Shown here one piece after another: positions 20,819 to 51,210 of a DNA stretch of 64,000 nt. Source of the DNA: a virus (Duplodnaviria; Heunggongvirae; Uroviricota; Caudoviricetes); the IMG/VR virus record IMGVR_UViG_3300028888_000051, positions 163,384 to 227,383 of that record; one strand, written 5' to 3'. The stretch's first letter is position 1; the number at the start of each line of letters is the position of its first letter. The translations under genes were made by a program, and so were the position numbers. The notes under the pieces were generated by a model that did no database searches, was not told the DNA's origin, and saw only the letters and a program-made list of their open reading frames with translations.

Positions 20819-21715
20819 ATGTCAAATGAATTAGTATTAAATTCAGAATGGACGCCTTTTTTAATAGAAAACAGAGCTTCTATTACATTTGATAAATTTT
20901 TAGATTTAATTAAACAATTAGATAACAATAGTTCACCAAATTTATGGACAAAATGGAAAAATTATGCTAATCAAGTAGTTATAGAAACACCAAATTACTA
21001 TTTTAAGTTATATGAAGATGATTATTTATGTGGTTCATTTTGGTCATTAATTCGCTCTACTTTAGGAGAGATATATACAAAATATTTTAATATTTTGTGG
21101 GATGTTAATATTATAAAGCAAAATAGTAAAATATATACACTCGAAAGACGTCAAAAATTAAATGTATGTATACCGAATTCAATTTTATATACTGATTTAC
21201 TTCTTAATTGGTCAAATACACTTAAAAAACTAGAAAATGAACTTTTATTATCAGAAATATGTCAACAACTTAAACCATATATTCCAGAATTAGCAGAACT
21301 TAAGTTGATACGTAATTGTATAAATAAATATGCAGATTATGCTATTACTGAAGATAATAATATTGTACTTTTAGATGATTCCGATTGGTTTATAGCTATG
21401 GTTGATAAAAACGGTAAATGGTTAAATTCAAAATTTAAAGGTTATAATATAATTTCTAGTTTAGGAGAAACAATTTTTGCTCCAGAGGGTTATTTTGATA
21501 AAGGAAATATAACTAAACATGAAGAATTTACAAATAAATGGCAAATTTATATGGAAAATATTAAAACTACAGAAATAGAAGGAATTTTATTTGATCAACG
21601 TGAACAAATGCTCAAAGATAATATATCTTTGATATTTAATCAAAAACTTTTGCCTAATCAAAATATAAAATCTTTTGATTCAGTAGGTGATTTACTTAAA
21701 ATTGGTTTTGAATAA
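20819..21715 (+). CDS. hypothetical protein (298 aa from the internal ATG)
   Basis: Track ORF starts at 20789 inside the upstream gene. ATG at 20819 (MSNELVL) follows the upstream stop and is the more likely start. The 3' end overlaps the convergent rSAM gene by 20 nt. Confidence 0.5.
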   Translation: MSNELVLNSEWTPFLIENRASITFDKFLDLIKQLDNNSSPNLWTKWKNYANQVVIETPNYYFKLYEDDYLCGSFWSLIRSTLGEIYTKYFNILWDVNIIKQNSKIYTLERRQKLNVCIPNSILYTDLLLNWSNTLKKLENELLLSEICQQLKPYIPELAELKLIRNCINKYADYAITEDNNIVLLDDSDWFIAMVDKNGKWLNSKFKGYNIISSLGETIFAPEGYFDKGNITKHEEFTNKWQIYMENIKTTEIEGILFDQREQMLKDNISLIFNQKLLPNQNIKSFDSVGDLLKIGFE

Positions 21716-22742
21716 ATTCTCTATCACAGATAACACATTCATCAGAATCTATATAGGCGCAATAATTTAGTTGATGTCCACATTTAGCTGTAAGAAATTC
21801 TAAGCAATTACCTTCTTTTTCATTTAATTCATTTCGTGTATGTTTATTTCTATGATTTAATTGCATACGATGATTATCATCTGATTCATTGAAATTTCTA
21901 TACAAATCATCTGCACGATAAATTATATTAAAAAGTTTATCATATAAACCTGGGCAATCTTCTTTAAATTTAATTAAAAATTTTAAAAAATCTTCTCTTT
22001 TTGGAAAAAAACCCGGTAATCTTTTTTCCATTAATTGTTTAGCTTCCATGTATTGTTCAATTTTTGATAAGTTTTCATGAATAGGTTTAATTCCACCTGG
22101 AGAAGGTTGTTTAAAAAACATAGAAGTATGATATTTATTCATAAAATCATTAAAAGAAAATTCACCATTCAGATATTTGGTAATTATATCTTGAGTTAAA
22201 ATGGTACAAGTGTTAAAATTTAATGTTGGATATTTTTCATGTAAATTTAACATGTTATTTGACCAATTTTCTTGCATTTTTGGTAAATGAAAACGACCGA
22301 TCGTATCATAAGATGTAACAAGCCATACTTGATTTATTAATTCTGGTTTTCCGGCTTGAATATACATTTTTTTCATAATATCCAAAGAAGTATATAAATC
22401 TTTTTGTGAACCTATTGTAAGGGTACACATAATCCATACTTCACGTATTTTACCTGAAATTTGTAATTCTGCAGTTTTTTGCATAAGATTAAAAAATTTA
22501 TTTTTGACTTCATCTACATCAAGTTGACCTTGAAAAAATTCTCCACCTATATAAGATACTGTGTTATATGGAATCATTTTTTTGTTATCAGATAAAAAAT
22601 TATAAGCATCATCAAGTGCCTTAATTTTTAATTCTGTTGGTGTAAAGCTATTACTGTTTGCATTATAACAAAATACACATTTTTGATTACATTGATGCCA
22701 TAATTCAAACTGTAAACTCTTTTTTTCATTTATATCCATCAT
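21696..22742 (-). CDS. radical SAM enzyme, paralogue D (348 aa)
   Basis: CNQKCVFC (CxxxCxxC) at residues 18-25; YIGGEFF; C-terminal CGHQLNYCAYIDSDECVICD. Confidence 0.8.
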   Translation of the reverse strand: MMDINEKKSLQFELWHQCNQKCVFCYNANSNSFTPTELKIKALDDAYNFLSDNKKMIPYNTVSYIGGEFFQGQLDVDEVKNKFFNLMQKTAELQISGKIREVWIMCTLTIGSQKDLYTSLDIMKKMYIQAGKPELINQVWLVTSYDTIGRFHLPKMQENWSNNMLNLHEKYPTLNFNTCTILTQDIITKYLNGEFSFNDFMNKYHTSMFFKQPSPGGIKPIHENLSKIEQYMEAKQLMEKRLPGFFPKREDFLKFLIKFKEDCPGLYDKLFNIIYRADDLYRNFNESDDNHRMQLNHRNKHTRNELNEKEGNCLEFLTAKCGHQLNYCAYIDSDECVICDREFIQNQF

Positions 22743-23659
22743 TAGTCTCCTATCATTTCTAAAAAGTTTTCAACATCACTTCTTGGATGTATGTTAGAAT
22801 CAAAATATCCATAATTGTTTTCATCACAATAGGTATTCTTTTTATTTTCTGAATTATGTCTATCATTCATAATATAAAAATCTTTATCGTCAAATGAAGA
22901 ATAACATGTATCACTATGATTTACAATATTTATAAAATTTTCTAAATCATCTTTTGTAAACATTTTTGTTTCATAAGTATATTGTAAAAATTTAAGAAAG
23001 GTTTCTCTTCTCGGAAAAAAATTAGATAAAATTTTATTTTCGAAATCTTCAACATTTTTACATAGATGACCATAACCAGTCATTGGTAGCATATAATTTG
23101 TAAAGCAATTATAATTTTCATTGAATTCTTTTAAATTTAAACGATTAGACAACACTGCTTCTAACATAGCTTGAGTAACAATCATTTCAACATGAAGTTT
23201 TAAATTTGGATAATTTTTATGTAAAAATAACATATTATTTTGCCAATTTTTTAAAGTGTTATTATTAAATCTACCAATTATATCCCAAGAAGTACAAATC
23301 ATAAATTGATTCTGAAAGTTCTTTATATATTCACAAAATTCTAATAATTCAGAATTATCATCAAACATTAAAGCTGTTGTAATAAGACAGCGTTTAGCTA
23401 TTCCCATTTTAATTTTATTTATAAAACAGTCTATAATTTTATAAAAGTATTTTTTAACTTCAGCTGTATCTATTTCACCATTAAAAAATTCTCCACCGAT
23501 TATACCAAAATCAGAATATTTATCAGCTTCTTTTGTATTAAGAATATCTAAAACTTTTTTCATACATTTAACTTTATCTCTATGTCTAGGTATACCGTTA
23601 TTATAGCAAAATTTACATCCAAATGAACATTGTTTCCATAATTCAAATTGTAAAAACAT
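22742..23659 (-). CDS. radical SAM enzyme, paralogue C (305 aa), C-terminal Cys module degenerate
   Basis: CSFGCKFC; IIGGEFF; C-terminus YCDENNYGYFDSN lacks the EC..CD part. Confidence 0.8.
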   Translation of the reverse strand: MFLQFELWKQCSFGCKFCYNNGIPRHRDKVKCMKKVLDILNTKEADKYSDFGIIGGEFFNGEIDTAEVKKYFYKIIDCFINKIKMGIAKRCLITTALMFDDNSELLEFCEYIKNFQNQFMICTSWDIIGRFNNNTLKNWQNNMLFLHKNYPNLKLHVEMIVTQAMLEAVLSNRLNLKEFNENYNCFTNYMLPMTGYGHLCKNVEDFENKILSNFFPRRETFLKFLQYTYETKMFTKDDLENFINIVNHSDTCYSSFDDKDFYIMNDRHNSENKKNTYCDENNYGYFDSNIHPRSDVENFLEMIGD

Positions 23660-23660
23660 A

Positions 23661-24584
23661 TTACTCTCCTAGTATAAGTAAATCACAAAGCATACATTCA
23701 TCTGAATCTGCATAACATCTATATAATTCACTATGACCACATTCGGTAATATTTTCTTTACCATCAGATAAAATTGGTTGTTGAGTTATATCATTATTTT
23801 TATTACGTAAACCAGTATATTTATAAATCGCCGAAGCGTTAGTTGAACTATACATATTAGTATATATCTGTGGAAAGTTTTCTTTCAAATATATACAAAA
23901 ATTAAGAAAATCTTCACGTTTGAAGAAAAAGTCATTTAATTTAAAACCAGAATGTATTGGATGAGGATATAAAAAACAAAAATTACATCCTTTTAGTTCT
24001 TCTTCTAAAAAATATTTAAAATCAAATTTGTTAGACATAATATCATCAATAAGATATTGAGTTAAAATCATTTGAACTCCAACTGCATAATTATATCTAT
24101 CTCTAAATTTTTTGATATTTTCTAAAGCTAATAATCTTTTTTCTTCTGAAGGATATCTATATTTTATATCATAAGAAAAATTTACATCTATAAATCGCAT
24201 GTCTCCTGTTTTTTCTTTGATTCTGTCTATAACACGAAATAAAAATGCTGGATCATACATTCCATTAGTTACAGTTGAATAGCGACATCTATAAGAAGTA
24301 CTAACTAATAATATTTTATTTATGATGTCATCTATTAAAAGCATAAATTCATCTTGTATATCTTTATCGGTTATAAAATACAATTCACCACCTAAAAGAG
24401 ATATACCATCAGCAAATTTATCTTTCCAATCAATATAATCCAAATTTTTTCTTATTTTATGTATTTCTTCAATAAGTCTAGATTTATCCCAAACTTCACG
24501 ATTTTTTCGTAAACAGAATTTACAGTTATTGTTACAATTTGGCCAAAGTGAATATTGATTCATATAATGTTTAATTTCTAACAT
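23661..24584 (-). CDS. radical SAM enzyme, paralogue B (307 aa)
   Basis: CNNNCKFC; LLGGELY; C-terminal CGHSELYRCYADSDECMLCD. Confidence 0.8.
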   Translation of the reverse strand: MLEIKHYMNQYSLWPNCNNNCKFCLRKNREVWDKSRLIEEIHKIRKNLDYIDWKDKFADGISLLGGELYFITDKDIQDEFMLLIDDIINKILLVSTSYRCRYSTVTNGMYDPAFLFRVIDRIKEKTGDMRFIDVNFSYDIKYRYPSEEKRLLALENIKKFRDRYNYAVGVQMILTQYLIDDIMSNKFDFKYFLEEELKGCNFCFLYPHPIHSGFKLNDFFFKREDFLNFCIYLKENFPQIYTNMYSSTNASAIYKYTGLRNKNNDITQQPILSDGKENITECGHSELYRCYADSDECMLCDLLILGE

Positions 24585-25451
24585 TTACATTTTCTCCATT
24601 ATTTCTTTTAGCACTTTACAATCACAAACAAAACATTCATTTGAATCAGAATAACATTTTTTAAAATTTTCTGAATGACCACATTTACTTTTATTTGATG
24701 AGATATCAACTAGTTTTCCATTTTCAGATTTTTGTAAAATAATATTTTGATTTAAAAGAAAATTATTACAATATTCTGTACCATAACCTGGAAGTTGTTC
24801 ATTAAGTTTTAGAATAGTTTTAAAAACAGTTTCTCTTGTTGGAGCTTTTATGTCTTTTCCAAATTTTATATAGGGTATTGTATTTACTTTAACGTTATAG
24901 TTATTTTCATACTCAGCTATGTTAAATTTTTCAGATAATACATCATTACAAAAACTTCTGGTTAAAATAATATTGACATATATAAGTAACTCAGGAAATA
25001 AATTTCTAATTTCAGTGAGATTAAAATAAAATTGTTTCATAGAAAAAGAATTAGAAAATCTTCCATCTCCATCACCAGAAGTAGTAAAATGTATTCTATT
25101 TTCTAATTTATAATCTTTTATCATATTTAATATTGGTAAAAGAAGTTCATGAATATCATATAAAATATTTGTATTAATATAACATAATTCAATTTCATTT
25201 TTTAACATTTTTTCACAAGTTAATTTGAATAATTTAAATAATTGTGAATTTATTATTGTATTTTTTTCTGCAAATATTTCACCACCAACGAATAGTATAT
25301 GTGTATCAGTTAAGTCTTTTACTGCATTATATATTAATTTTATCGATTCAAGTTGTTCTTCATGAGTTTGTTGTTTTTCTCTTTTTTGCCAGCAAAATTT
25401 ACAATTATTTGGACAATTATTCCAAAGAATGAATTCATGTATAGGTAACAT
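24585..25451 (-). CDS. radical SAM enzyme, paralogue A (288 aa)
   Basis: CPNNCKFC; FVGGEIF; C-terminal CGHSENFKKCYSDSNECFVCDC; first gene of the four-gene operon. Confidence 0.8.
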   Translation of the reverse strand: MLPIHEFILWNNCPNNCKFCWQKREKQQTHEEQLESIKLIYNAVKDLTDTHILFVGGEIFAEKNTIINSQLFKLFKLTCEKMLKNEIELCYINTNILYDIHELLLPILNMIKDYKLENRIHFTTSGDGDGRFSNSFSMKQFYFNLTEIRNLFPELLIYVNIILTRSFCNDVLSEKFNIAEYENNYNVKVNTIPYIKFGKDIKAPTRETVFKTILKLNEQLPGYGTEYCNNFLLNQNIILQKSENGKLVDISSNKSKCGHSENFKKCYSDSNECFVCDCKVLKEIMEKM

Positions 25452-26879: not shown

Positions 26880-27920
26880 ATGAAAGACAAAAATTTAATA
26901 ATTAAAGAATGGTTTGATATAGATGGTTTTTCAGTTAATGAATTACAAATATTAAAAGCTCATCGTCCAGAAGTAATAAAAAATTATAATATCGATTTAG
27001 AAAAATCAATGATAGATAGATTTTCTAAATTATTACCTTATAGTCATATAAATTATGGCACACATGAAATTTCTTTTTTTGAACATGCTACAGATATAAT
27101 AAATTGTTTATTTTCACAAAAAGTTGATGATAATACTTTAGTTATTGTATCTAATAATGAGCATGAAAATGTAATAAAAAATTATACACAATGCAAGAAT
27201 ATTTATGTTTTAGATTTTGATACTGAAATAATACCATGTAAATTAGATAATTTATATGCAGAATGCAGTAAATATAGAAAAGTATTTGTATATATAATAG
27301 GCACACAAGTTTCAAATGGAATAATTACACCACAATTATTTTTTGAAACATTAAAAACTTGGCTAGTATCAAATCAAAAAGAGCATGTAATGATAATTGA
27401 TGATGTGCATGGCTTATTTATAGTACCTAGAGATTATACTATATTTGATTACATCATTTATACATGTCATGCTTTAATTACACAATTTGATATGGGAATT
27501 TTAATTGCAAAGAGACCTTCTGAATTAGTAGGATATCATTATTTAAATTGGGGAATGGCTTATTTAGATGCTATAGAAATAATATTTAATCATTTAATAA
27601 AATTTTATAATTTCAAAAATATAATGTGCCAATATTTTGAAGAAGAAATTGCTGAAAAAAAGTTGACATTAAATTCTAATACAGCTCCACATATTTTTGC
27701 ACCAGAAATTCATAGACTTAGATTAAATAAAAATGATTTTGATGAGATATTTTATGAATTAAAAAAGTATGATATGCGTATTGAGGGAGGATTTGATGAA
27801 AATGGTAAATGTAATTCTAGATTATATCTTCGAATAAGAGAAGGGCAATACTTTACACATCCAGAAAGATTAATTCCAGGTTTAGAAATAGCTAAGTCAA
27901 TTTTTAGTACAATAGAATAA
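26880..27920 (+). CDS. class-V aminotransferase / cysteine-desulfurase-like fold protein, canonical PLP lysine apparently absent
   Basis: Ordered by-eye matches to NifS/IscS-type blocks: HRPEV, SNNEHENV, GTQVSNGIITP, IIDDVHG, YTCHA...GILIAKR (HA where HK is expected). Confidence 0.35.
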   Translation: MKDKNLIIKEWFDIDGFSVNELQILKAHRPEVIKNYNIDLEKSMIDRFSKLLPYSHINYGTHEISFFEHATDIINCLFSQKVDDNTLVIVSNNEHENVIKNYTQCKNIYVLDFDTEIIPCKLDNLYAECSKYRKVFVYIIGTQVSNGIITPQLFFETLKTWLVSNQKEHVMIIDDVHGLFIVPRDYTIFDYIIYTCHALITQFDMGILIAKRPSELVGYHYLNWGMAYLDAIEIIFNHLIKFYNFKNIMCQYFEEEIAEKKLTLNSNTAPHIFAPEIHRLRLNKNDFDEIFYELKKYDMRIEGGFDENGKCNSRLYLRIREGQYFTHPERLIPGLEIAKSIFSTIE

Positions 27921-29362: not shown

Positions 29363-30163
29363 CTAAGAAAATAACTTTACAAGCTTTTGCCAGAATGTAT
29401 CTGGATTTTTAACTTTTGCAACTATTACCTCTTCTTTTTTATTTTTAATAATAGATTGGCCAGAGAGTAAATAGTTTTTAAGATCATCATACTCAGCATT
29501 ATACCTCGCTTTATATTCTGGATACTTGATCTTTCTATATGTATATAATTTTTCTAAAAATTTTTCTTTCGTAAGAATATTTTTATTAAAACATATACTT
29601 TGGAAGATTTTATAAGCACCACCTTGTCCATGTTGTATAATAGTAGACTTAACTGCTGCTTGAATAGCATTATCTTCAGAAGCCCAAGATGTTAATTTAT
29701 TAAAATTACTATTGCCGTTTTTATCCATACGAATATAAACAGGAATTATTTCTTTTTTTAATAAAAAATTATCATATGAATTTCTAAAAGATTTTTCAGT
29801 AGCTATTTTCTTCCATATATTTATAAAATTTTTATTACCAGCATATGCAGCTCTATAACCACCTGCTTGTATTAATATATCATAATACTTATAATTATTA
29901 TCTTTTAAATATGTTAAAAAGAAATCAAAAGTAGATGGTAAATTGTTCTTTCTCCAAGTAGATATTTGCCACTTTCCATAAGAATAACCACCATATCCAT
30001 CCTTACTTATTGCTTGATACCCTAATTTACCACATTCATATTTTGCTACAATATCATGCTTTGTATGAAGAGCATCATAATTTGTTTTGGCTTGAACTGT
30101 TACTATATTTCCAAAAATAACTAAAGTTATATAATAACTTAACCAAAAGATTTGTTTAATCAT
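29363..30163 (-). CDS. secreted protein, possibly lysozyme-like glycoside hydrolase
   Basis: N-terminal signal peptide (hydrophobic core, VQA cleavage-like site). DGYGGYSYGKWQIS resembles muramidase/VgrG3-type motifs (weak, from memory). Confidence 0.35.
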   Translation of the reverse strand: MIKQIFWLSYYITLVIFGNIVTVQAKTNYDALHTKHDIVAKYECGKLGYQAISKDGYGGYSYGKWQISTWRKNNLPSTFDFFLTYLKDNNYKYYDILIQAGGYRAAYAGNKNFINIWKKIATEKSFRNSYDNFLLKKEIIPVYIRMDKNGNSNFNKLTSWASEDNAIQAAVKSTIIQHGQGGAYKIFQSICFNKNILTKEKFLEKLYTYRKIKYPEYKARYNAEYDDLKNYLLSGQSIIKNKKEEVIVAKVKNPDTFWQKLVKLFS

Positions 30164-30233
30164 ATCTTAAATCCTAGTATCACTTGCCTCTTAGTTTGCT
30201 TGTTCAACTATTTTCATCAATAAAGATTAACTT

Positions 30234-30246
30234 TATATAGAACTAT
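30234..30246 (-). promoter_or_regulatory. AAATAGTTCTATA box (minus strand) upstream of 29363..30163
   Basis: GTTCTA box about 75 nt from the start codon. Confidence 0.3.
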
Positions 30247-30336
30247 TTAAAATTAATGTAAAGCCTTAAGTTAAAAAAACTATATTTTGTAAATAGTTAT
30301 CTAGAAACAAACTCTTATATATTTCTAAATAAAAAT

Positions 30337-30348
30337 AAGTTCTATAAA
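30337..30348 (+). promoter_or_regulatory. AAGTTCTATAAA box (preceded by TTTCTAAAT) upstream of the fibre cassette
   Basis: Two adjacent TTCTA motifs at about 30322 and 30340; 105-130 nt before ATG 30454. Confidence 0.3.
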
Positions 30349-30453
30349 TCAATGATTAATTTATTTAATTTCAATTTATTCATAGCTAAAAATTTATTTA
30401 TTATAAAATAATTAGTTAAATATAACTTTAACTTAAAGGATAAAATAATTACC

Positions 30454-31914
30454 ATGAGTACTACTGATACAGATGTTCAAAATTTAGTTGTTAATAAACT
30501 TACTCTTTCAAAATATACAGAATTAAAAAAAGCGGGTACAGTAAGTGCAACTGAATCTTATGAAATTACAGATATTGATTCAAAGATTTTAGATTTTTAT
30601 GGTACGTGTACTACAGCCGCAGGAACACAAGCTAAGGTAGTTACTTGTCCCGGATTTATTTTACAAGAAGGTATATCAATAAGAGTTAAATTTACAAATA
30701 ATCAAGATTATAATGGTGTACCTACTTTAAACGTTAATGGAACAGGAGCAAAAAATATTGTATCAAAGTCTGGTACAAATGCATTTAGATATTGTTGGAT
30801 GGCAGGTGAAGTTGTTGCTTTTACTTATGATGGTACAAATTGGATTATGCAAGATGGTGGAATTGCAACAACTACATATTATGGTACAACAAGATTACAA
30901 ACTTCTACAACTTCTACTAGTACAAGTTTAGCAGCAACTCCAGCTTCAATAAACAATTTAGTTCAAAATATGATTGAACCATATGATATTTATTCTACTT
31001 CAAGTACTTATGCTATTGGTGATAGAGTAAGATATAATAACAATGCTTGGGAATGTAATACAGCTATTAGTACAGCAGAAGCCTGGACTCAAGCTCATTG
31101 GACAATGTTAGATCCTATCCAAATACAATTGGATGATAAACAAGAAACACTTACTTCTGGTACAAATATAAAAACAATTAATGGTAATTCAATATTAGGT
31201 TCTGGAAATTTAATTATTGAAGGAACTGGAGGTAATGCTACTTGGGGTAGTATTAATGGTACTATTTCTAATCAAACGGACTTAGTTCATTCTGTTGCTG
31301 GAGCAATAAATAGTTATTGTGCAACAAATGGATCAACAAATGATAAACCATACAAAAAAATTGCTGAATGGATATTAACTGGAACATATCAATCAGTTAT
31401 TGTACCTTTTTTATATTGTTTTACAAATGTCGATGCAGCAAGTGCTTTATATTTAGGAAAAATAAATTCAAGGGTTGATGCAACTGCTGGTACTTCAAGT
31501 CAAGCAACTTCGAATATTGTATTGGAAACTTTTCCAATTGATATTCAAAATGAAAAAATTACTTTTTATTTATTATCTAAAAATAATACACCAAGTGCAG
31601 ATAGTGTTACCTATCAATTATGGATTTACATTAATAATACATATAGAGGTGTAGCAATTTTACCATTACGACAAGGAACAGGAGGATCAGGATATAATAT
31701 TTCTAATATTACATGGGGTAATAATTTAGTAGAAGCTAGTGCTTTACCTAGTGAATATGTTGCAAAAAGTCAAACATTAGCTTCTTTACATGCTTTAACT
31801 CCTACCACCAGTGATAATTCTACTAACGTGGCAACAACAGCTTTTGTAAAAAATCAAGGGTATTTATCTACGATGACATATGATTCATCTACAGAAACTT
31901 TAGCTTGGAGTTAA
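30454..31914 (+). CDS. tail fibre protein (486 aa)
   Basis: Thr/Ser/Gly/Asn-rich; conserved TSDNSTNVATTAFV motif near the C-terminus. Confidence 0.7.
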   Translation: MSTTDTDVQNLVVNKLTLSKYTELKKAGTVSATESYEITDIDSKILDFYGTCTTAAGTQAKVVTCPGFILQEGISIRVKFTNNQDYNGVPTLNVNGTGAKNIVSKSGTNAFRYCWMAGEVVAFTYDGTNWIMQDGGIATTTYYGTTRLQTSTTSTSTSLAATPASINNLVQNMIEPYDIYSTSSTYAIGDRVRYNNNAWECNTAISTAEAWTQAHWTMLDPIQIQLDDKQETLTSGTNIKTINGNSILGSGNLIIEGTGGNATWGSINGTISNQTDLVHSVAGAINSYCATNGSTNDKPYKKIAEWILTGTYQSVIVPFLYCFTNVDAASALYLGKINSRVDATAGTSSQATSNIVLETFPIDIQNEKITFYLLSKNNTPSADSVTYQLWIYINNTYRGVAILPLRQGTGGSGYNISNITWGNNLVEASALPSEYVAKSQTLASLHALTPTTSDNSTNVATTAFVKNQGYLSTMTYDSSTETLAWS

Positions 31915-31921
31915 AATATGA

Positions 31922-33181
31922 ATGTATAAATCAAGTTTTATTGGTATTTTAAGAAATTTACCACAGAATTTTACTCCAAATATCATTTGTGAATCTGCTA
32001 GTACAGAAGTACCTTATATTTTTGATTATACTGCAAATTATACAGATAATAATTGTTGGGATATTACATTAAATGTAAGACAAGATACTACTAATGCTAT
32101 TAATACCTCAACACCAATCTGGGGGCCGTTTACATTTATTATTACTGCAACAAATTATGCTCCCGCAATTTTAACTAGTTCAACGTATGAAGGAGTTTTT
32201 GATATTAAAATGGAACAATATGTTACAAGAATTTTAAATGAAAAAACTAATACTGGATATGTAATAAAAGACACAGAAGCTAGAAATAATATTACTACAT
32301 TAGATAGTAATGCAGTACATAAAACTGGTAATGAAACCATTAGTGGGACTAAGACATTTACCGATTCTATAGCGTCCCACAGTGGAGTTGATGAAACAAG
32401 CAGTTCTGCACAAGAAAAAGACTTTATTAAATTATACGATAATCAAACCAATACCGGATTTATTAGACAATATTGGTCGACAACACAAAACCAATTAAGA
32501 ATTAGAAATTTAGCAAGACACGGTGAAGCTGCAGGGGCTTGGGGAGATATACAGCAGATAATTGATGCTAACGGGAATTATAGAGTAAATATTGATTGTG
32601 CCGGAACATTAACCAATATGGCTCTCACAAGTGCTACAGGTAGCTCAACCGCCACTGATGTACCTACAAAAGGATGGGTAAATAACCCTGCTACAAGTAC
32701 GAATGTCGTGCATAGAACTGGTAATGAAACTATTGGCGGACAAAAAACTTTTACAGCTCAAGTTACTAAAACAAATAGCTCGACTGGAGCAGATACAATT
32801 TTTGTAAATAAAAATACAGCAATAACAAAAGGAACAGCTCCTAGTACAAATGTTGAATCAAGATGGAGATTAACAGATTCTTCTTCTGGAGATAGTAATT
32901 CTGCTTTGATAGCAGGTGTAGATTTTCAATATGATACAAGTAATAGAACATCTGCTTTTTTACAAGTAGGTAAACCAGAAGCAGGTTCAACAAGTACTGC
33001 CCGTATGGGTATTTTTTATCCAGCTACAGGTAATCCATATACAGAAGCTCCAACTCCTGCAACTTCTGATAACTCAACAAAAATAGCAACAACAGCATTT
33101 GTAAATAGTCACATACAGCAAGTAAGTGCACTTCCTGCTTCTCCGCTTTCTAATGTTTTATATGTAATACCAGAGGAATAG
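31922..33181 (+). CDS. tail fibre protein (419 aa)
   Basis: Two copies of (A/V)VH(K/R)TGNETI(S/G)G.KTFT; PTPATSDNSTKIATTAFVNS near the C-terminus. Confidence 0.7.
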   Translation: MYKSSFIGILRNLPQNFTPNIICESASTEVPYIFDYTANYTDNNCWDITLNVRQDTTNAINTSTPIWGPFTFIITATNYAPAILTSSTYEGVFDIKMEQYVTRILNEKTNTGYVIKDTEARNNITTLDSNAVHKTGNETISGTKTFTDSIASHSGVDETSSSAQEKDFIKLYDNQTNTGFIRQYWSTTQNQLRIRNLARHGEAAGAWGDIQQIIDANGNYRVNIDCAGTLTNMALTSATGSSTATDVPTKGWVNNPATSTNVVHRTGNETIGGQKTFTAQVTKTNSSTGADTIFVNKNTAITKGTAPSTNVESRWRLTDSSSGDSNSALIAGVDFQYDTSNRTSAFLQVGKPEAGSTSTARMGIFYPATGNPYTEAPTPATSDNSTKIATTAFVNSHIQQVSALPASPLSNVLYVIPEE

Positions 33182-33184
33182 AAG

Positions 33185-33847
33185 ATGCCAGTATATTTCG
33201 GAAACAGTAATAAAATAAAAGAAATGTATTATGGAAGGACTAAGATAAAAGAAGCTTATTATGGTTCTACGTTAGTTTATAAGAGTACACATTATAAACC
33301 AAATGAGGTAATCTATGAATCATCAACAGCTGGAAGCACTACACTTAATTTATTAGATAATGGTAAATATGAAGTCATTTGTATTGCAGGCGGAGGTGGT
33401 GGTAAGCAATTTAAATATGGTTCTGATATTACTGATCCAATAATTAATTACGGTGGTGGTTCAGGTTCTGGATTTGATTGTATTTTACAATTAACAAGTG
33501 GAAGTTATACAGTGACTGTAGGTGCAGCAGGTGTTAGAAATACGGATCACTCAACAACTTCATCTGGTTCTGGTGGCAATTCACGATTTGGAACATCTTA
33601 TGCTTATGGTGGAGGTGGTGGTAAATATAATGCAGTTGGACCAAAAGGAGAGGCTCCAAGTATAACTTACACAATAATATCTACTACTTTTAATAAAGCC
33701 GGTAATAACGGAACTAGAGATGTTGGTTCGACTGCCGCAGGTGGTGCTTCTGTTTATGATAATACAGCAACCGGCTATGGTGCAGGTGGTAGAAGCAATC
33801 AAAATGGCCATGCAGGTTATGTAAAAGTTATTTATAAAGGAAGTTAA
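33185..33847 (+). CDS. glycine-rich fibre-associated protein (220 aa)
   Basis: GGGGGK, GGGSGSG and GGGGGK runs ending in GHAGYVKVIYKG, a pattern seen in phage glycine-rich tail proteins. Confidence 0.55.
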   Translation: MPVYFGNSNKIKEMYYGRTKIKEAYYGSTLVYKSTHYKPNEVIYESSTAGSTTLNLLDNGKYEVICIAGGGGGKQFKYGSDITDPIINYGGGSGSGFDCILQLTSGSYTVTVGAAGVRNTDHSTTSSGSGGNSRFGTSYAYGGGGGKYNAVGPKGEAPSITYTIISTTFNKAGNNGTRDVGSTAAGGASVYDNTATGYGAGGRSNQNGHAGYVKVIYKGS

Positions 33848-33936
33848 ACAATTGTAAAAAAGTATATCAAAAGATTGTGTTTAATATACAAAAAACAGTG
33901 GATAGAAAACTAAAAAGTTTTAAGGATTTTTAATAA

Positions 33937-34911
33937 ATGGCCAATTATGTTAGTAAATTTTTAAATAATGATATAGAATATACATTAAAAGATTCGAACG
34001 CCGTTCATAAAACAGGTGATGAAAGTATTGCAGGTGATAAAACTTTTACTGGGTATATTAAAGGTCAAGCAGCTAATTATACAAACCATGCGATGAAACT
34101 CGGCACTAATGGTGTCGATTATATGGATTTCTATGAGTATGGCGGTTTATGGAATTTCTACAAGTCGAGAAGCGGAACTAATACCCTAGTGGCTAAGATT
34201 GCAGAATTGACAACTTCTACAAATGATGAAACGCTTGCTACCACAAATTGGGTTAATAGTAAAGGCTATGCATTAGATAGCGATGTTGTTAAAACTAGTG
34301 GTAGTCAGACCGTTGACGGGATTAAGAATTTTACAAGTGGTATTAATATAGGTGATTCAACAGAATACAGAGCACAACTTTACAAATTATCTGGAGGTTC
34401 TGGCAACCTTGCACTTGCAATTAATAAACAAGATAATTCTGGTTGGTTATCAAGCATAGTGTTGAATAAAGATGGAACAATCAATATCAATCCAAGCACT
34501 AGCGTAACCGCTCCAACACCTGCAACAAGCGACAACTCTACTAAAATTGCAACAACAGCATTTGTAAATAGTAGAGTACAAAATCTTTCTTGTGATTTTT
34601 CCTCTACTGGAAAAACGACACTATCTTTAGCTCTTAATACCCCATACGCCTTTGCTGTAAGTGGTTATCTAGTTATTACCATAAACGTAAAAGGGCAAAC
34701 AGACCCTACTGTTACTGTGTTAATGTCAAACACCAGTAATGCTTCTTCATCTTCATTTAAAGTGTGTAGTATAAGTAGTAATGGTGGAACGGCAGAACAC
34801 AATAATATACCGTTTTCAATATATGTAGAAAAAGGGCAGAGTATATATCTACATAAAACTGGTGGTGGTTCTGCTACTGTGGAAGACGCTTTTATTTTCG
34901 CAACAAGATAG
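33937..34911 (+). CDS. tail fibre protein (324 aa), G+C-richer module
   Basis: AVHKTGDESIAGDKTFTG and APTPATSDNSTKIATTAFVNS motifs followed by a distinct roughly 115-aa C-terminal domain. Confidence 0.7.
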   Translation: MANYVSKFLNNDIEYTLKDSNAVHKTGDESIAGDKTFTGYIKGQAANYTNHAMKLGTNGVDYMDFYEYGGLWNFYKSRSGTNTLVAKIAELTTSTNDETLATTNWVNSKGYALDSDVVKTSGSQTVDGIKNFTSGINIGDSTEYRAQLYKLSGGSGNLALAINKQDNSGWLSSIVLNKDGTININPSTSVTAPTPATSDNSTKIATTAFVNSRVQNLSCDFSSTGKTTLSLALNTPYAFAVSGYLVITINVKGQTDPTVTVLMSNTSNASSSSFKVCSISSNGGTAEHNNIPFSIYVEKGQSIYLHKTGGGSATVEDAFIFATR

Positions 34912-34921
34912 GAGATTTTAA

Positions 34922-35536
34922 ATGATAGAAGAAATTTTAGAAGAAAAATCACCAAAAGAGCAAGGGGAAGAAAAGCTTGCTAAAATGCTTGAACAACACC
35001 CCGAACTTAAAAACTATGCAAAGTTTATGGTGAATGATGAAGGCGAAATTGTATATAAAGTAATCATAGAGCCTAGTAAATTTGACATCGCCTTTGATGA
35101 TTATTTCTTTTTGAAAAATCACCCAGAAGATGAAAATGCTAAGTTTATTGATGACTTTTATGAATACGTTTACAACCTTGTATCTAAGTGGTGTGAAGAG
35201 AATAAGGATTATACTATTGACTGTTGGCAAAACCACTACACTGTTCGCAAGAGTGATGAGGTTGAAAAAATCCATTATGAGTCTATGAGTGAAGATGAGA
35301 AAAAATCATATGATGAAAGAAAACTACAAGAAAAGATAGATTCTAAACGTGCTGAACGTGATAATTTACTCACTATGGTTGTTGACCCAATTGTTACAAA
35401 TCCACTACGTTGGGAAGAACTTTCAGACGCTGAGAAGTCAAAATATCGTGCTTATCGGTTGTATTTATTAGATATTCCACAGCAAGAGGAATTTCCTGAT
35501 ATTGAGATTAAGTCTTTCGAGGAGTTTAACGCATGA
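34922..35536 (+). CDS. tail fibre assembly chaperone (Tfa-like)
   Basis: C-terminal RDNLLTMVVDPIVTNPLRWEELSDAEKSKYRAYRLYLLDIPQQEEFPD matches the lambda/P2/Mu Tfa pattern; immediately follows a fibre gene. Confidence 0.6.
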   Translation: MIEEILEEKSPKEQGEEKLAKMLEQHPELKNYAKFMVNDEGEIVYKVIIEPSKFDIAFDDYFFLKNHPEDENAKFIDDFYEYVYNLVSKWCEENKDYTIDCWQNHYTVRKSDEVEKIHYESMSEDEKKSYDERKLQEKIDSKRAERDNLLTMVVDPIVTNPLRWEELSDAEKSKYRAYRLYLLDIPQQEEFPDIEIKSFEEFNA

Positions 35537-36171
35537 TTTGGTTATACAGTATTATAAGTGCACTTACTTTTAGAATAAGAGGCGGGTTAAGAATACTATT
35601 TACAGATAAGAAATTTCCTCTATGCAAATGGTGGTTTGCAACAGCTTTTGCTACATTAGCTTGGTTTTTGAAATATAATAATTTTACTTTTGAAAGTTTT
35701 AATTATTGGTTAGTGTTATTAATAGCAAGTAGATTATCTACACAAATGGCTGGTTGGGGTGAATATTGTGGTTGTGTACTTGGTATAGGCAAACCTAATC
35801 CAGAAAGAAAAGACTTCCCTAAAGTAGATGATTTTCTAGACAATCTTAAATGGGATGCTCATGATATTAAAATATGGAAATGGACAATTCATATTCCAGC
35901 TTTTAATTTATTAGATCATCCTATTTTATTCGGATGGTTAGGCTTATCAGCTAGAGGTTTATATTTATCATTTATTATTGGATTAGCCTTAAATTCTGTA
36001 ATATTTATGCTTTGTGGAATTATGATGGGTACAATTTATTGGTTATGTGGATTATTTGCACGCAAAGTACTAAAGAAAATGGATAAAACAGGATGGAATA
36101 TTTCTGAATGGGTATTTGGAGGTTATCTTGGCTTATTCTTATATATTTGTATTAAAATAACTATATTTTAA
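35533..36171 (+). CDS. polytopic membrane protein (212 aa)
   Basis: Five or six hydrophobic segments; 4-nt overlap with the tfa-like gene. Confidence 0.55.
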   Translation: MIWLYSIISALTFRIRGGLRILFTDKKFPLCKWWFATAFATLAWFLKYNNFTFESFNYWLVLLIASRLSTQMAGWGEYCGCVLGIGKPNPERKDFPKVDDFLDNLKWDAHDIKIWKWTIHIPAFNLLDHPILFGWLGLSARGLYLSFIIGLALNSVIFMLCGIMMGTIYWLCGLFARKVLKKMDKTGWNISEWVFGGYLGLFLYICIKITIF

Positions 36172-36199
36172 ATCTGTTAGTATTAATTATATATAAAAT

Positions 36200-36226
36200 A
36201 AAAGGTACTCATAGTAAGTACCTTTT
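36200..36226. terminator. bidirectional terminator between convergent operons
   Basis: Stem AAAAGGTACT/AGTACCTTTT, 7-nt loop, A-run before and T-run after. Confidence 0.75.
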
Positions 36227-36250
36227 ATTATTTTTATCTATTAAAATTTT

Positions 36251-40407: not shown

Positions 40408-40981
40408 CTATTTCTCCAGCTAATTTGAGATAAGTATATATTTCTTTAGCGTTATCTGTAAAATTGAAATGAGTATATTTTGAATTTTTTGTAAAACTTA
40501 TACCTGCTTTTGATAATTTATCAATTATAATATCATTTAAAATATTATTTTTAATACAAATTTTTTTAAATGCTACTTGTGGAAGTTTTAAATTACCTAT
40601 TTTATTATCAGGTGTTTTATATGTATAAATTAAATATACTATATAATTAAGTATAATATGTTTATAAGTGTCTGTATCTATTTTACGTTTTCTAAAATAA
40701 TTTATTAAAGAAGGTTTAAATTCATAATATTGTTCATTTATATTACTAAAAGTTTCAATTTTTAGTTGTTTATAATACTTTTTATTTATTGTTTGAAATA
40801 ATTTTTCATTAAAAATTCTAAAATAAAATCTATTATACTTATTATCTATTGTTTCAAATGATGATATTTCAAAAAATTCATTTTTCTGTAATAAATATTT
40901 ATATTTTCGCTCTAAATATTTCAGAGCTAATACATATATATTTGATATTTCTAAATTTACGTGTAACATTTTTACTCTCAT
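40391..40981 (-). CDS. hypothetical protein (196 aa)
   Basis: ORF in the minus-strand operon downstream of glyA. Confidence 0.5.
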   Translation of the reverse strand: MRVKMLHVNLEISNIYVLALKYLERKYKYLLQKNEFFEISSFETIDNKYNRFYFRIFNEKLFQTINKKYYKQLKIETFSNINEQYYEFKPSLINYFRKRKIDTDTYKHIILNYIVYLIYTYKTPDNKIGNLKLPQVAFKKICIKNNILNDIIIDKLSKAGISFTKNSKYTHFNFTDNAKEIYTYLKLAGEIDVFSK

Positions 40982-43750: not shown

Positions 43751-43996
43751 TCATTCTCTATCTTTATGGACTGCTTTTATTGCTTGGTTATATAACCACT
43801 CTTTATAGCCATCTATACTCATCGAATAAAAGTTTCCTAGACGAGTATTTATAGAGTATTGTTTATTGTTATACTTAAAAGATACATCTATTCCTTTATT
43901 TAAATCTTCCCAAGTTGCATTATCAGGAATAGCATCCCAAAAACTATCAATGATGTTGTAGATTTGAAAGTGTTCATCTTCGTAGTCTTTAGTCAT
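43751..43996 (-). CDS. hypothetical protein (81 aa)
   Basis: Member of the minus-strand chain of small ORFs; 4-nt overlap with the upstream ORF. Confidence 0.45.
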   Translation of the reverse strand: MTKDYEDEHFQIYNIIDSFWDAIPDNATWEDLNKGIDVSFKYNNKQYSINTRLGNFYSMSIDGYKEWLYNQAIKAVHKDRE

Positions 43997-46803: not shown

Positions 46804-47268
46804 TTAAAATCCTCTTTCATTAAAATATGTTATCAGCTTTTCCCACACTTCATCAGATTCCGTATTGTCATCATTTAAATCAAATGTTATTTTTCTTATT
46901 TCCTCTATATCCAAAGCGTTTATATCACAAGGATTATATGAACAAATACCATAATTGATTTCTTCTTTTCTTGTATATGCTTGTCTTATTGGTTTAAATT
47001 CTTCATAAGTAAGAAATTTTAATTTAAATCCATTTCTATCTACAAAACAATCCTTTTCAGCACTCCACTCAGCTTTCTTTGTTTCATACCTTGTAAACCA
47101 ACTTTCACTTCTAAATCCATTCCATTTATGAGAAAAATCAAATGTTTCATAATATTCATGATCTATTAATAGACTTTTAGGCATAACTGGAATTACAAAA
47201 CATTCTTCTTTAGTAATATGATTTTTCTTTTTATATTCAATATATTTGTTTTTTAACCATTTAAACAT
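46804..47268 (-). CDS. hypothetical protein (154 aa)
   Basis: Member of the minus-strand chain; 1-nt overlap with the upstream ORF. Confidence 0.5.
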   Translation of the reverse strand: MFKWLKNKYIEYKKKNHITKEECFVIPVMPKSLLIDHEYYETFDFSHKWNGFRSESWFTRYETKKAEWSAEKDCFVDRNGFKLKFLTYEEFKPIRQAYTRKEEINYGICSYNPCDINALDIEEIRKITFDLNDDNTESDEVWEKLITYFNERGF

Positions 47269-47684
47269 TATTCTTTATCCTTGTTTTCTTTAATGTTCAT
47301 GTCTTTTTCGGTTAAAATGATCATTTTTCCATTTTCTGGACTAATTTGCAATACAGCTTGTCTGATGATACAATCGTTACCTAAACTTTGCGGAATATTA
47401 TACCACCAGTCAATAACGCTTTGACAATCTTCTTCATCAAAATCTCTCAAATCACCAAATAAAGCAATAGTTCGCATATAATCAGAAGCGTCATCATCAG
47501 CTCTATCTATGAACTCTATATCAATACTTCCTTCTGATCCTGTTGGTAAATTACCATTATCATTTGGATGATACCAAGTATTTCTCACAAAGATTTTAGA
47601 GAAATCAGTTTTGCTGTTTGGTTGTAAAATCATTTTCATATCGTCTACTCTGATACAGCCTGTAATATGTGTCCAAATGCTCAT
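47268..47684 (-). CDS. hypothetical protein (138 aa)
   Basis: Member of the minus-strand chain; 1-nt overlap with the upstream ORF. Confidence 0.5.
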   Translation of the reverse strand: MSIWTHITGCIRVDDMKMILQPNSKTDFSKIFVRNTWYHPNDNGNLPTGSEGSIDIEFIDRADDDASDYMRTIALFGDLRDFDEEDCQSVIDWWYNIPQSLGNDCIIRQAVLQISPENGKMIILTEKDMNIKENKDKE

Positions 47685-48028
47685 TATTTTGTTTCCTTAT
47701 ATCCTTCAAAATTCCAAAAATCTATCATATTTTCACCATGTAAATATTCAATAGCAAATTTAGGAAAGTGACACCAAGTATTGTCATCAAGCATAATGGC
47801 TATGTCATTCTCATCACTTCTTTTTCTTGCAAACAATTTTGAAGATTCACACCAACCAATTATTTTGCTCTTTATAAATTCCTTGTTTTCGTACATATCA
47901 TAAAAATTTGTACAAAATTCACGATTCCAATTTTCAAAAAGAAATTTATTACTTGATAATTTCGGAATACTATTACTCATACTTTTACTTTCAAATGTGA
48001 TAAAATATACATAACATGTATAATTCAA
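47684..48028 (-). CDS. hypothetical protein (114 aa), first gene of the minus-strand chain
   Basis: Faces the 350-bp divergent intergenic region 48029..48380. Confidence 0.5.
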   Translation of the reverse strand: MNYTCYVYFITFESKSMSNSIPKLSSNKFLFENWNREFCTNFYDMYENKEFIKSKIIGWCESSKLFARKRSDENDIAIMLDDNTWCHFPKFAIEYLHGENMIDFWNFEGYKETK

Positions 48029-49234: not shown

Positions 49235-49522
49235 ATGGTGGCAACAGCAGGTAAAGTAAAATCGATATCAGAAGATACAGGTTTATCAGAAGCCAATGTT
49301 GCTGCTGTATTATATTTATATCTTACATATTGTCTTCAGGAAGCTTTGATTGATGGACAAACAAGAACATTATTTGGTACACTTAAAATTAATCAAAATA
49401 ATCGTTTTGAATTAGAAACCGATAAGCAAGGTCTTATTGATTTAATAGATAAACGAGATATCAAATTAATTTATAAAATAGCTGAAAATGGACCAGATGC
49501 TTCAATATTTGGAAATTTATAA
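49235..49522 (+). CDS. hypothetical protein (95 aa), possibly HU/IHF-like
   Basis: ISEDTGLSEANVAAVL...EALIDGQTRTLFGTLKI follows the HU N-terminal helix-helix-strand pattern, but the Arg/Pro beta-arm is not evident. Confidence 0.3.
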   Translation: MVATAGKVKSISEDTGLSEANVAAVLYLYLTYCLQEALIDGQTRTLFGTLKINQNNRFELETDKQGLIDLIDKRDIKLIYKIAENGPDASIFGNL

Positions 49523-49761
49523 TGCCAAAAGTATATTCAAATAAGCATATTGAAGAAGATATTAAAAATTTAATTGAAGAAACATTTAATACTTGCTTAT
49601 CTAATAGAGAAGAAATATACTGGTTAATTACTTTATTGCGTGGATTTATGAAAGTACCAAACAAAAATACAAAATTAACTCCAGATAATATGCAATTAAA
49701 TAAATGGCAATATGAAATGACTCCAATTATTGAGAGTTTCATGAAAAAGTGGAAGTTGTAA
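49522..49761 (+). CDS. hypothetical protein (79 aa)
   Basis: ATGA-type overlap with the upstream ORF. Confidence 0.45.
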   Translation: MPKVYSNKHIEEDIKNLIEETFNTCLSNREEIYWLITLLRGFMKVPNKNTKLTPDNMQLNKWQYEMTPIIESFMKKWKL

Positions 49762-50991: not shown

Positions 50992-51210
50992 ATGTATGAA
51001 AAATTAATAGATCTTAAAGATAATTTTTTATTTTGTATTGCAACTACATTTGTTGGAATTTTAATTATGATAATAGCTAGTGTTATTATAATTATAACAC
51101 TTCCAATGTATTATTTATTTTGGATAAATCCAGTATTTGAAATTTATCAAAATTTAATTTGGAAAATATATGATATATTATTTCAAATTGGATCAGATGA
51201 TGAAATTTAA
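50992..51210 (+). CDS. small membrane protein (72 aa, two hydrophobic segments); holin-like topology
   Basis: FLFCIATTFVGILIMIIASVIIIITLPMYYLFWINPVF; AAAGGAAA RBS. Confidence 0.45.
   Translation: MYEKLIDLKDNFLFCIATTFVGILIMIIASVIIIITLPMYYLFWINPVFEIYQNLIWKIYDILFQIGSDDEI

Follow-up and report, generated by a model that had tools for sequence, protein, structure and literature searches.

A mosaic tail-fibre operon in an uncultured jumbo phage, with two stretches probably replaced from the fibre modules of smaller myoviruses

Introduction

Does a G+C-rich island in the tail-fibre operon of an uncultured phage represent foreign DNA and, if so, what was exchanged? The locus lies in a 64,000-nucleotide (nt) stretch (hereafter, the window), which covers positions 163,384 to 227,383 of the IMG/VR record IMGVR_UViG_3300028888_000051 (Caudoviricetes) and is part of an uncultured jumbo-phage genome of ~227 kb and 26% G+C content (GC). 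The operon at 30454-36171 encodes tail fibres, a fibre-assembly chaperone, and a membrane protein (Table 1). An initial annotation, made from the letters alone, regarded an island at 32300-35540 as a recently acquired unit consisting of a receptor-binding tip and a lambda/P2-type Tfa chaperone. We consider it likely that two stretches of this mosaic operon were replaced from the fibre-module pool of ~35-43 kb myoviruses. Judging from the sequences, the exchange is a repeated mosaic replacement, not one recent insertion.

The exchange of fibre genes among unrelated phages is familiar. The lambda Stf/Tfa, P2 H/G, and Mu S/U cassettes (PF02413, Caudo_TAP) are its classic examples, and fibre/chaperone mosaicism across unrelated phages is well documented in lambda, P2, Mu, and T4.

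Results

Composition of the island

The island was confirmed. Its GC was 35.1%, against 26.4% for the window overall, and the hand counts that had drawn attention to it were correct (28 G+C of 60 at 34501-34560 and 8 of 60 at 40501-40560). Windows of 3241 nt across the stretch had a mean GC of 26.4% (standard deviation, 2.8%) and a maximum of 35.2% (start 32345); just 0.07% of 3241-nt positions, all starting at 32292-32353, reached 35.1%. In 300-nt windows, raw GC peaked at 33500-33799 (0.42) and 32450-32749 (0.40). The enrichment had been described as strongest across 33937-35536, which applies to codon usage and to GC at third codon positions (GC3), but not to raw GC.

The synonymous background was a GC3 of 0.120 ± 0.040 over 68 genes, and ranks are given among 71 genes. 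The expected GC of a gene is the prediction from its amino acids under the window's own codon usage. In addition, a codon-usage log-likelihood ratio (LLR) was trained on the non-fibre genes of smaller myovirus contigs (see below) versus the window background.

One possible explanation is that no transfer occurred and that the whole island reflects the composition of Gly/Ala/Ser/Thr-rich fibre proteins. This holds for 30454-33847 outside the patch at 32360-32707. Genes in that interval had a high GC at second codon positions (GC2, 0.47-0.52) with a GC3 of 0.09-0.14, and their observed GC (0.31-0.36) was close to the amino-acid expectation (0.32-0.35; z -2.4 to +2.0), as in 30454-31914 (0.309 observed versus 0.319 expected). 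The raised GC over 30454-33936, the patch apart, is that of Ser/Thr/Gly/Ala-rich fibre proteins; in 33185-33847, it is due to Gly/Ser/Thr/Ala codons. However, the chaperone gene had a low GC2 (0.224) and yet the highest GC3 of the window (0.288; rank 1 of 71, z 4.2). The chaperone and fibre 2 exceeded their amino-acid expectation by z 10.0 and 8.9, respectively, the top two of 71 genes, and the chaperone gene shows 85% nt identity to a different phage lineage. Composition is therefore refuted as the cause for 34021-35536 and 32360-32707, and as an account of the whole island it is highly improbable.

The synonymous excess was confined to 32360-32707 (GC3 0.259, P=1e-5; flanks 0.110 and 0.089), 34021-34911 (0.236, P=2e-9), and 34922-35536 (0.288, P=8e-12). 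The codon LLR ranked the chaperone first (z 4.6) and fibre 2 (GC3 0.231, z 2.8) second of the 71 genes, was positive in the 32360-32707 patch, and assigned 30454-31914, 33185-33847, and 35533-36171 to the resident class. Sliding windows placed the codon and GC3 shifts at ~32282-32700 and ~34057-35600. The GC, GC3, and codon analyses thus confirmed a synonymous shift in 32360-32707 and ~34021-35536, and the chaperone gene is the most clearly foreign gene in the window.

Table 1. Features of the tail-fibre operon and its surroundings (window coordinates; nt, nucleotide identity; aa, amino acids or amino-acid identity).
Feature	Position	Strand	Evidence
GTTCTA box, candidate promoter element for 30454-36171	30339..30344	+	Nearest upstream, 115 nt before 30454
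Fibre-like protein (486 aa, CBM_5_12 hit), resident	30454..31914	+	GC2 0.468, GC3 0.090
Fibre 1 (419 aa, 2x BppL_N, PF18338), resident with one swapped patch	31922..33181	+	E 9.2e-12
Swapped internal patch of fibre 1, foreign-like codons	32360..32707	+	L042 breakpoints, GC3, LLR
Glycine-rich protein (220 aa, PF21722), resident	33185..33847	+	GC2 0.516, GC3 0.131
Spacer, resident	33848..33936	.	Both flanks nearly identical to L042; 93 nt shorter
Fibre 2 (324 aa): resident 5' end, mosaic shaft, predicted C1q/TNF-like tip	33937..34911	+	Codon LLR +0.13 per codon
BppL_N-type motif SNAVHKTGDESIAGDKTF, probable left crossover zone	33995..34049	+	78% nt to 32700-32754 (repeat family D2)
Shaft segment common to myovirus contig L030	34022..34293	+	80% nt over 273 nt; 74% aa to P0032
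63-nt motif APTPATSDNSTKIATTAFVNS at shaft/tip boundary	34510..34572	+	86% nt to 33047-33109 in fibre 1
Tip domain (aa 214-324), predicted C1q/TNF-like beta jelly roll, presumed receptor-binding head	34576..34908	+	
Tail-fibre assembly chaperone, PF16778 (Phage_tail_APC)	34922..35536	+	29.3 bits, GC3, L010 identity
Multi-pass membrane protein (212 aa), resident, right flank	35533..36171	+	L045 identity, codon LLR -0.10
Bidirectional terminator-like hairpin closing the operon	36197..36229	.	13-15 bp stem + T-run, both strands, convergent genes

Resident and exchanged segments

The boundaries of the shifted segments coincided with breaks in the similarity to sister strains. Contigs L042 and L043 (Logan DRR507843 and DRR595534) were 87-98% identical (nt) to the window across 29854-32359, 32708-33894, and 33864-34016. 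The first gene of the operon showed 94.6% nt identity to L042 and 65% amino-acid (aa) identity to L045 (SRR27279352), a relative at about 80-90% nt identity whose contig ends inside fibre 1. Fibre 1 showed 97.6% and 91% nt identity to L042 on the respective sides of the patch. The patch itself could not be aligned to L042, which carries there a segment 77% identical (nt) to window positions 33997-34252. The rise in GC noted at ~32.3 kb is due to this patch. A continuous foreign island from that point was not supported: 32708-34016 is resident and 87-91% identical (nt) to L042. It includes the glycine-rich protein gene, which falls within a 91% nt block common to L042 and whose product is 40% identical over aa 1-116 to a homologue in the distant relative L027.

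Fibre 2 starts as a resident gene. Its first 84 nt (~28 codons), together with the spacer before them, showed 87% nt identity to L042, and L042 and L043 hold the start of a second fibre gene at the same place, their contigs ending at the equivalent of ~34021. Identity to L042 runs to 34016, identity to the myovirus contig L030 begins at 34022, and GC3 and LLR climb from ~34057.

On the right, the membrane protein gene 35533-36171 was considered as a part of the acquired module, given its 59% (aa) homologues 3' of the chaperone in the smaller myoviruses, and rejected: its codons are resident-like, it is 85% (aa) and, from 35548, 81-83% (nt) identical to L045, and it adjoins a Band_7 gene in both. 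Since this gene is resident, the right junction lies at ~35536-35548. In L045 (1-5891), the block from ~26836 to ~35540, running from 26880-27920 through the fibre genes, is inverted relative to the window, and one of the breakpoints is the junction between the chaperone and the 35533 gene.

Translational selection on highly expressed late genes may also shift codon usage. Fibre and chaperone genes are expressed late, for virion structure or assembly, and expression level can shape codon bias. However, other probable structural genes, even fibres in the same operon, had an ordinary GC3 (0.089 in 13756-15501, 0.093 in 15627-18611, and 0.090 in 30454-31914), and the shift turns on and off within genes, exactly at the L042 homology breakpoints. 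We give this explanation hardly any credence.

The metagenomic source also raises the question of mis-assembly between a jumbo phage and a smaller phage, particularly because the junctions fall within conserved motifs, at which false joins can arise during assembly. However, an independent Logan assembly (SRR9006805) matched 15.4 kb of the region at 100% identity, and identity to a 227-kb ENA metagenome contig was 99.93% over 21 kb. Furthermore, the exact fibre 2 protein was present on 4 contigs, three of which exceed 200 kb. An assembly artefact is thus next to excluded.

The chaperone family

Both open reading frames of the proposed tip-chaperone module were as annotated, the second encoding 204 aa. 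The chaperone matched PF16778 at aa 142-193 (E 8e-7; 29.3 bits against a cut-off of 26.6) and PHROGs 4628, 4912, and 8746 ("tail fiber assembly"). It begins shortly after the stop of fibre 2 on the same strand, a placement common to many unrelated chaperone families.

The identification of this protein as a lambda/P2-type Tfa was not upheld. Among 19 members of the chaperone family, 18 hit PF16778 at E<=1 (best 1.1e-7), and one touched PF02413, the family of Tfa (E 0.072). The window chaperone itself did not match PF02413 at E<=0.1, while lambda Tfa, as a positive control, matched it at 2.8e-43. Alignment of the family with lambda Tfa using hhalign gave a probability of 0.2% (E 0.3) over 10 aligned columns, covering the YR..L motif only. 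A profile of the chaperone found no match in the PDB, while lambda Tfa reached Mu TfaU (5yvq) at E 8e-9, and fold searches with the chaperone model did not return any fibre chaperone.

The last ~30 residues (KYRAYRLYLLDIPQQEEFPDIE) resemble lambda Tfa (WKKYRVLLNRVD...PDIEWP), and lambda Tfa touches PF16778 at E 0.07. A sequence similarity of the C-terminal domains of such chaperones to Tfa proteins was also reported in the study of Pam3 (PMC9608196). This likeness may be a superfamily-level hint at most. Residues invariant or at least 90% conserved in the family were R143, R146, L150, D155-P156, N160-P161-L162, R163, W164, Y178, R179, Y181, L182-L183, I185-P186, and F191-P192. An AlphaFold2 model (predicted local distance difference test score, 92) comprised an alpha/beta N-domain and a helical C-domain, with aa 111-183 helical.

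Segments of fibre 2

Fibre 2 matched PF18338 (BppL_N) in two stretches (E 4.2e-12; 45.6 bits against a cut-off of 25.8). Fibre 1 aligned with it from aa 97 of fibre 1 onward; fibre 2 lacks the 96-aa N-terminal domain. It also aligned with the last ~380 aa of the 578-aa fibre of L010. Downstream of the segment common to L030, aa 113-213 were 55-58% identical to P0038 and P0039. The tip was 53-56% identical (aa) to the tips of L010, L008, and L032, which belong to fibres preceding homologous chaperones, and 45-48% identical to P0031 and P0033. It had been described as a unique ~115-aa tip; the last ~111 aa indeed have no paralogue in the window, but relatives exist elsewhere at 45-56% identity. 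Based on these alignments, fibre 2 is a patchwork of at least three segments with different nearest neighbours.

The contigs with the closest chaperone relatives carry an apparent invertible tip switch (L008:9228-9954 and L010:4983-5696). The inverted repeats of 24 nt (100% and 96% complementary) encode NSRI(S/T)SVM directly after an ...ATTxxVNS motif, and they flank the current tip and an alternative tip open reading frame on the reverse strand (L008 9625-9933, Gp53-like_C; L010 5374-5679). In both contigs, the 24-nt inversion site begins immediately after the APTPATSDNSTKIATTAFVNS motif. The window has neither an inversion site of this type nor an alternative tip. An imperfect 20-nt inverted repeat (34587-34606 and 34938-34957) was rejected as a relic of such a site; it is only 85% complementary and AT-rich, has no alternative tip, and does not match L008 or L010.

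Relatives in other phages

In a search of 5.8 billion proteins, the chaperone had 28 homologues, at no more than 86% identity. The gene was 85%, 81%, and 72% identical (nt) to those of L010, L044, and L008, respectively, and the protein was 86% identical to that of L010, a contig with a GC of roughly 34%. Identity to L010 was 0.80-1.00 in every 60-nt bin of 34921-35520 and ~0.5-0.6 outside, and nt identity to L010 overall was confined to 34921-35640 of the window. In L044 (3-464), a chaperone 78% identical (aa) to that of the window follows a tip without detectable similarity to the window tip.

The genomic context was read for four chaperone relatives in contigs of at least 10 kb (P0001, P0003, P0010, and P0012) and two fibre relatives (P0032 and P0033). 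Their contigs (L008, L010, L012, L030, L031, and L032) are at most 43 kb in length (34-43 kb for the three longest chaperone contigs), have a GC of 34-38%, and encode sheath, tube, Dit-like, sheath-initiator, baseplate-J, and Wedge1 proteins of the E217/Pam3 type. In L008, L010, L012, L030, and L032, the Wedge1 gene is followed in turn by those for the fibre, chaperone, membrane protein, holin, and endolysin. L031 and L032 carry integrases; since these are the two contigs reaching that far, the group is probably temperate. The myovirus contigs share with the window only the chaperone, fibre motifs, and the family of the 35533 gene, and the non-fibre genes of L008, L010, L012, and L032 had a GC3 of 0.24-0.28, matching the foreign segments of the window. 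The relatives are uncultured ~35-43 kb myoviruses, probably from the gut or rumen.

Transfer in the reverse direction, from the jumbo-phage lineage into the smaller myoviruses, was also considered, since distant PF16778-like chaperones (~30% aa) occur in another jumbo-sized contig, L013. However, the codons of the module match the genome-wide usage of the smaller myoviruses and are an outlier in the jumbo phage, and the contigs of all six close chaperone or fibre relatives examined for context are those of myoviruses with E217/Pam3-like baseplates. We regard a reverse transfer as very unlikely.

The matches also bear on the proposal that a lambda/P2-type Tfa and its tip arrived as one recent unit from enterobacterial-type temperate phages. 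No enterobacterial phage was found among them; the relatives are uncultured myoviruses and, among isolates, marine Roseobacter podophages. Matches to isolated phages were limited to the C-terminal half of the chaperone (aa ~94-199, 35-52%), in SIO1-like Roseobacter podophages, Aquamicrobium P14, and Vibrio pVa-21. A scan of genome contigs with the chaperone profile gave C-terminal-domain matches only, in rumen or gut Alphaproteobacteria, Bacteroidales, Flavobacterium, and other metagenome-assembled genomes. Despite the C-terminal likeness described above, the missing PF02413, hhalign, and PDB matches, together with the discordant ages of the parts, make this proposal very improbable.

IMG/VR scans with the products of 30454-31914 and 33185-33847 and with a DNA pattern for the start of fibre 2 found no match, nor did a scan of JGI metagenomes with the 33185-33847 product. 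A JGI metagenome scan with the Band_7 protein identified a single close relative, L014/L046.

Other features of the operon and window

The membrane protein encoded by 35533-36171 did not match Pfam or PHROG. Its homologues (37-59% aa) lie directly after the chaperone in L008, L010, L011, and L012. The family is large and uncharacterised (more than 168 homologues) and occurs 3' of fibre chaperones in the jumbo lineage and in the smaller myoviruses; in the latter, the gene lies upstream of the holin and endolysin genes.

In the distant relative L027 (27% GC), the locus comprises a fibre, a Gly-rich protein, a different 146-aa acidic protein, and then a membrane protein, with neither a second fibre nor a PF16778 gene. 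The L042 and L043 contigs end at the start of the second exchanged stretch, and that of L045, with its inverted block, ends inside fibre 1. The 146-aa and 189-aa proteins of L027 were rejected as homologues of the chaperone and the 35533 product (pairwise BLAST E 0.6 and 0.09, respectively); a weak link exists only via small proteins of L011 and L012.

The absence of a GTTCTA box from the spacer 33848-33936 had been regarded as a sign of foreign origin. The box is indeed absent. However, the spacer is resident DNA that aligns with L042 along its whole length except for 93 nt, and the lack of the box is therefore no evidence of foreign origin. The spacer gap lies at 33893-33894, and the 93 nt present only in L042 (L042:3917-4009) hold a near-box, GGTTCTTGAATATATATGATAT; an internal promoter for fibre 2 may thus have been lost from the window. 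Overall, GTTCTA shows no enrichment (32 copies in the window versus 33 expected). Nineteen of the 32 copies are located in non-coding DNA (13.7% of the window), gene-oriented and 26-115 nt upstream of starts. Copies joined to A/T-rich sequence include those at 2715, 12100, 12254, 15570, 18616, 27922, 30238(-), 30339, 48304, 54383(-), 54412, 54465, and 55172. Based on this arrangement, GTTCTA is a plausible candidate for a phage-specific promoter box. A scan for sigma-70 promoters gave results below shuffle expectation.

The window also encodes RecA, an SbcC-like ATPase, SHMT, ClpP, thymidine kinase, an intein-bearing 1045-aa protein, and a prohead-protease-like protein. Among 50,697 phage records, megablast with 30400-36200 and tblastn with fibres 2 and 1 found no match, and tblastn with the 994-aa window protein found distant prohead-protease-like matches only. 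Since these searches did not reveal a close isolated phage, the lineage appears to be without isolated relatives.

Several other genes were noted. The small genes 43751-43996, 47268-47684, 47684-47980, and 49522-49761 had a raised GC3 (0.21-0.26); 43751-43996 and 47268-47684 resembled the smaller myovirus group in codon usage (z 3.9 and 3.1, respectively) and may be further acquired genes. The SbcC/Rad50-like gene 5196-7061 exceeded its amino-acid expectation in GC (z 5.8), though its GC3 was only 0.159. The 1045-aa protein (51207-54344) carries an intein splicing domain and an HNH_3 endonuclease; L014 has an open reading frame of matching length (1044 aa). A tandem array at 21696-25451 consists of four paralogous genes of ~290-350 aa (one with a weak radical-SAM match), and approximately six copies are present in L027 (15183-20730).

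Discussion

The present study read composition, codon usage, nt identities, synteny, and family membership directly from the DNA and from these we infer the direction of transfer, the sites of crossover, the mechanism of the chaperone, and the effect on host range. The claim of horizontal acquisition stands in so far as the composition is foreign and the nearest relatives belong to another phage lineage. However, a single recent module is not consistent with the mosaic structure and discordant divergence. The chaperone (86% aa) and tip (56% aa) diverge so differently from L010 that a single event is not supported.

We propose that homologous recombination between co-infecting or resident phages replaced a first stretch, 32360-32707 in fibre 1, and a second, ~34021-35536, comprising the shaft and tip of fibre 2 and the whole chaperone gene. 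The donors would be fibre modules of 34-38% GC myoviruses with E217/Pam3-like baseplates. Short sequences conserved among fibre genes may have anchored the crossovers, namely the BppL_N-type motif (33995-34049) for the left crossover and, as a further anchor, the 63-nt APTPATSDNSTKIATTAFVNS motif at 34510-34572. The right crossover would lie at the junction with the membrane protein gene, which is located directly 3' of the chaperone in both lineages. Fibre 2 may terminate in a receptor-binding head of the trimeric C1q/TNF-like type. The chaperone (PF16778) is probably trimeric; the nascent tip would be held by the variable alpha/beta domain at the chaperone's N-terminus, while the conserved helical domain at its C-terminus would bring about trimerisation, as in Pam3 gp24/gp25.

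Several points weigh against this proposal. The nearest sampled donor is just 85% (nt) identical in the chaperone and 56% (aa) in the tip. Since the divergence of the two is discordant, their joint arrival is uncertain, and the pairing in L044 of a 78%-identical chaperone with a dissimilar tip indicates that the linkage between tip and chaperone is loose. Since the start of a second fibre gene is present in L042 at the corresponding position, the second fibre is ancestral to the sub-lineage and the event was a replacement, not an insertion. The L042 and L045 contigs end short of the module, so that its absence is documented in the distant L027 only. Fibre 2 also has no recognisable baseplate-attachment domain.

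Similar modules are known. The Alteromonas phages A5 (a podovirus), V22 (a myovirus), and P24 (a siphovirus) share fibre and chaperone modules (PMC10579305). As in that case, a fibre, its cognate downstream chaperone, and small neighbours are common to unrelated phages, the likeness of the fibres is mostly C-terminal (35-60% in Alteromonas phages), and conservation is higher in the chaperone than in the fibre (PMC10579305). However, the Alteromonas chaperone belongs to DUF4376 and that of the window to PF16778. Furthermore, the recipient here is a jumbo phage, a strong GC contrast (26% versus ~35%) indicates the direction, and the fibre itself is a patchwork.

The Pam3 fibre gp24 and chaperone gp25 are known from cryo-electron microscopy (PMC9608196); the N-domains of gp25 hold the tip, whose trimerisation is brought about by a helical bundle at the C-terminus (PMC9608196). 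The window shares with Pam3 the order of fibre then chaperone, variable N-terminal (presumably fibre-binding) and conserved C-terminal helical chaperone domains, and, by prediction, a TNF-like distal fibre domain, and phages of the source type carry Pam3/E217-like baseplate genes (Pam3_gp18 and E217_GP41). With the cassettes of lambda, P2, and Mu, it shares a gene for a small acidic assembly protein that lies directly 3' of that for the fibre, mosaic fibre C-termini, and a faint likeness in the last ~30 residues. However, it differs from them in Pfam family, in the lack of profile-level homology, and in its relatives, which are not enterobacterial. Among isolated phages, relatives are limited to SIO1-like Roseobacter podophages, Aquamicrobium P14, and Vibrio pVa-21; these have proteins annotated as tail fibre assembly with the PF16778 half, whereas they lack the N-terminal domain of the window chaperone and are of other phage types and habitats.

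The observations reveal no new mechanism; that unrelated phages shuffle their host-recognition genes is familiar. As a more tentative extension, which we consider possible but doubtful, the receptor-binding fibres of the jumbo phage may be refitted time and again with tips and chaperones captured from temperate phages or prophages of its hosts, by way of the shaft-motif and membrane-gene anchors. If so, the 5-kb fibre operon would be a record of past host encounters, and fibre 2, without a baseplate-attachment domain, would ride as a side branch on another fibre. Based on the switch of L008 and L010 at the shaft/tip boundary, tips might also pass from one phage to another as units already pre-cut for inversion.

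The value of this locus lies in a clean and quantifiable exchange between a 227-kb, 26% GC jumbo recipient and a pool of ~35-43 kb, probably temperate myoviruses. Because of the compositional contrast, the direction and breakpoints may be read to within a few tens of bases. The results mark the ~110-aa tip and the chaperone as swap units for engineering. Moreover, the exchange implies a shared host for both phage groups and may, therefore, provide a handle for assigning a host to the uncultured jumbo phage.

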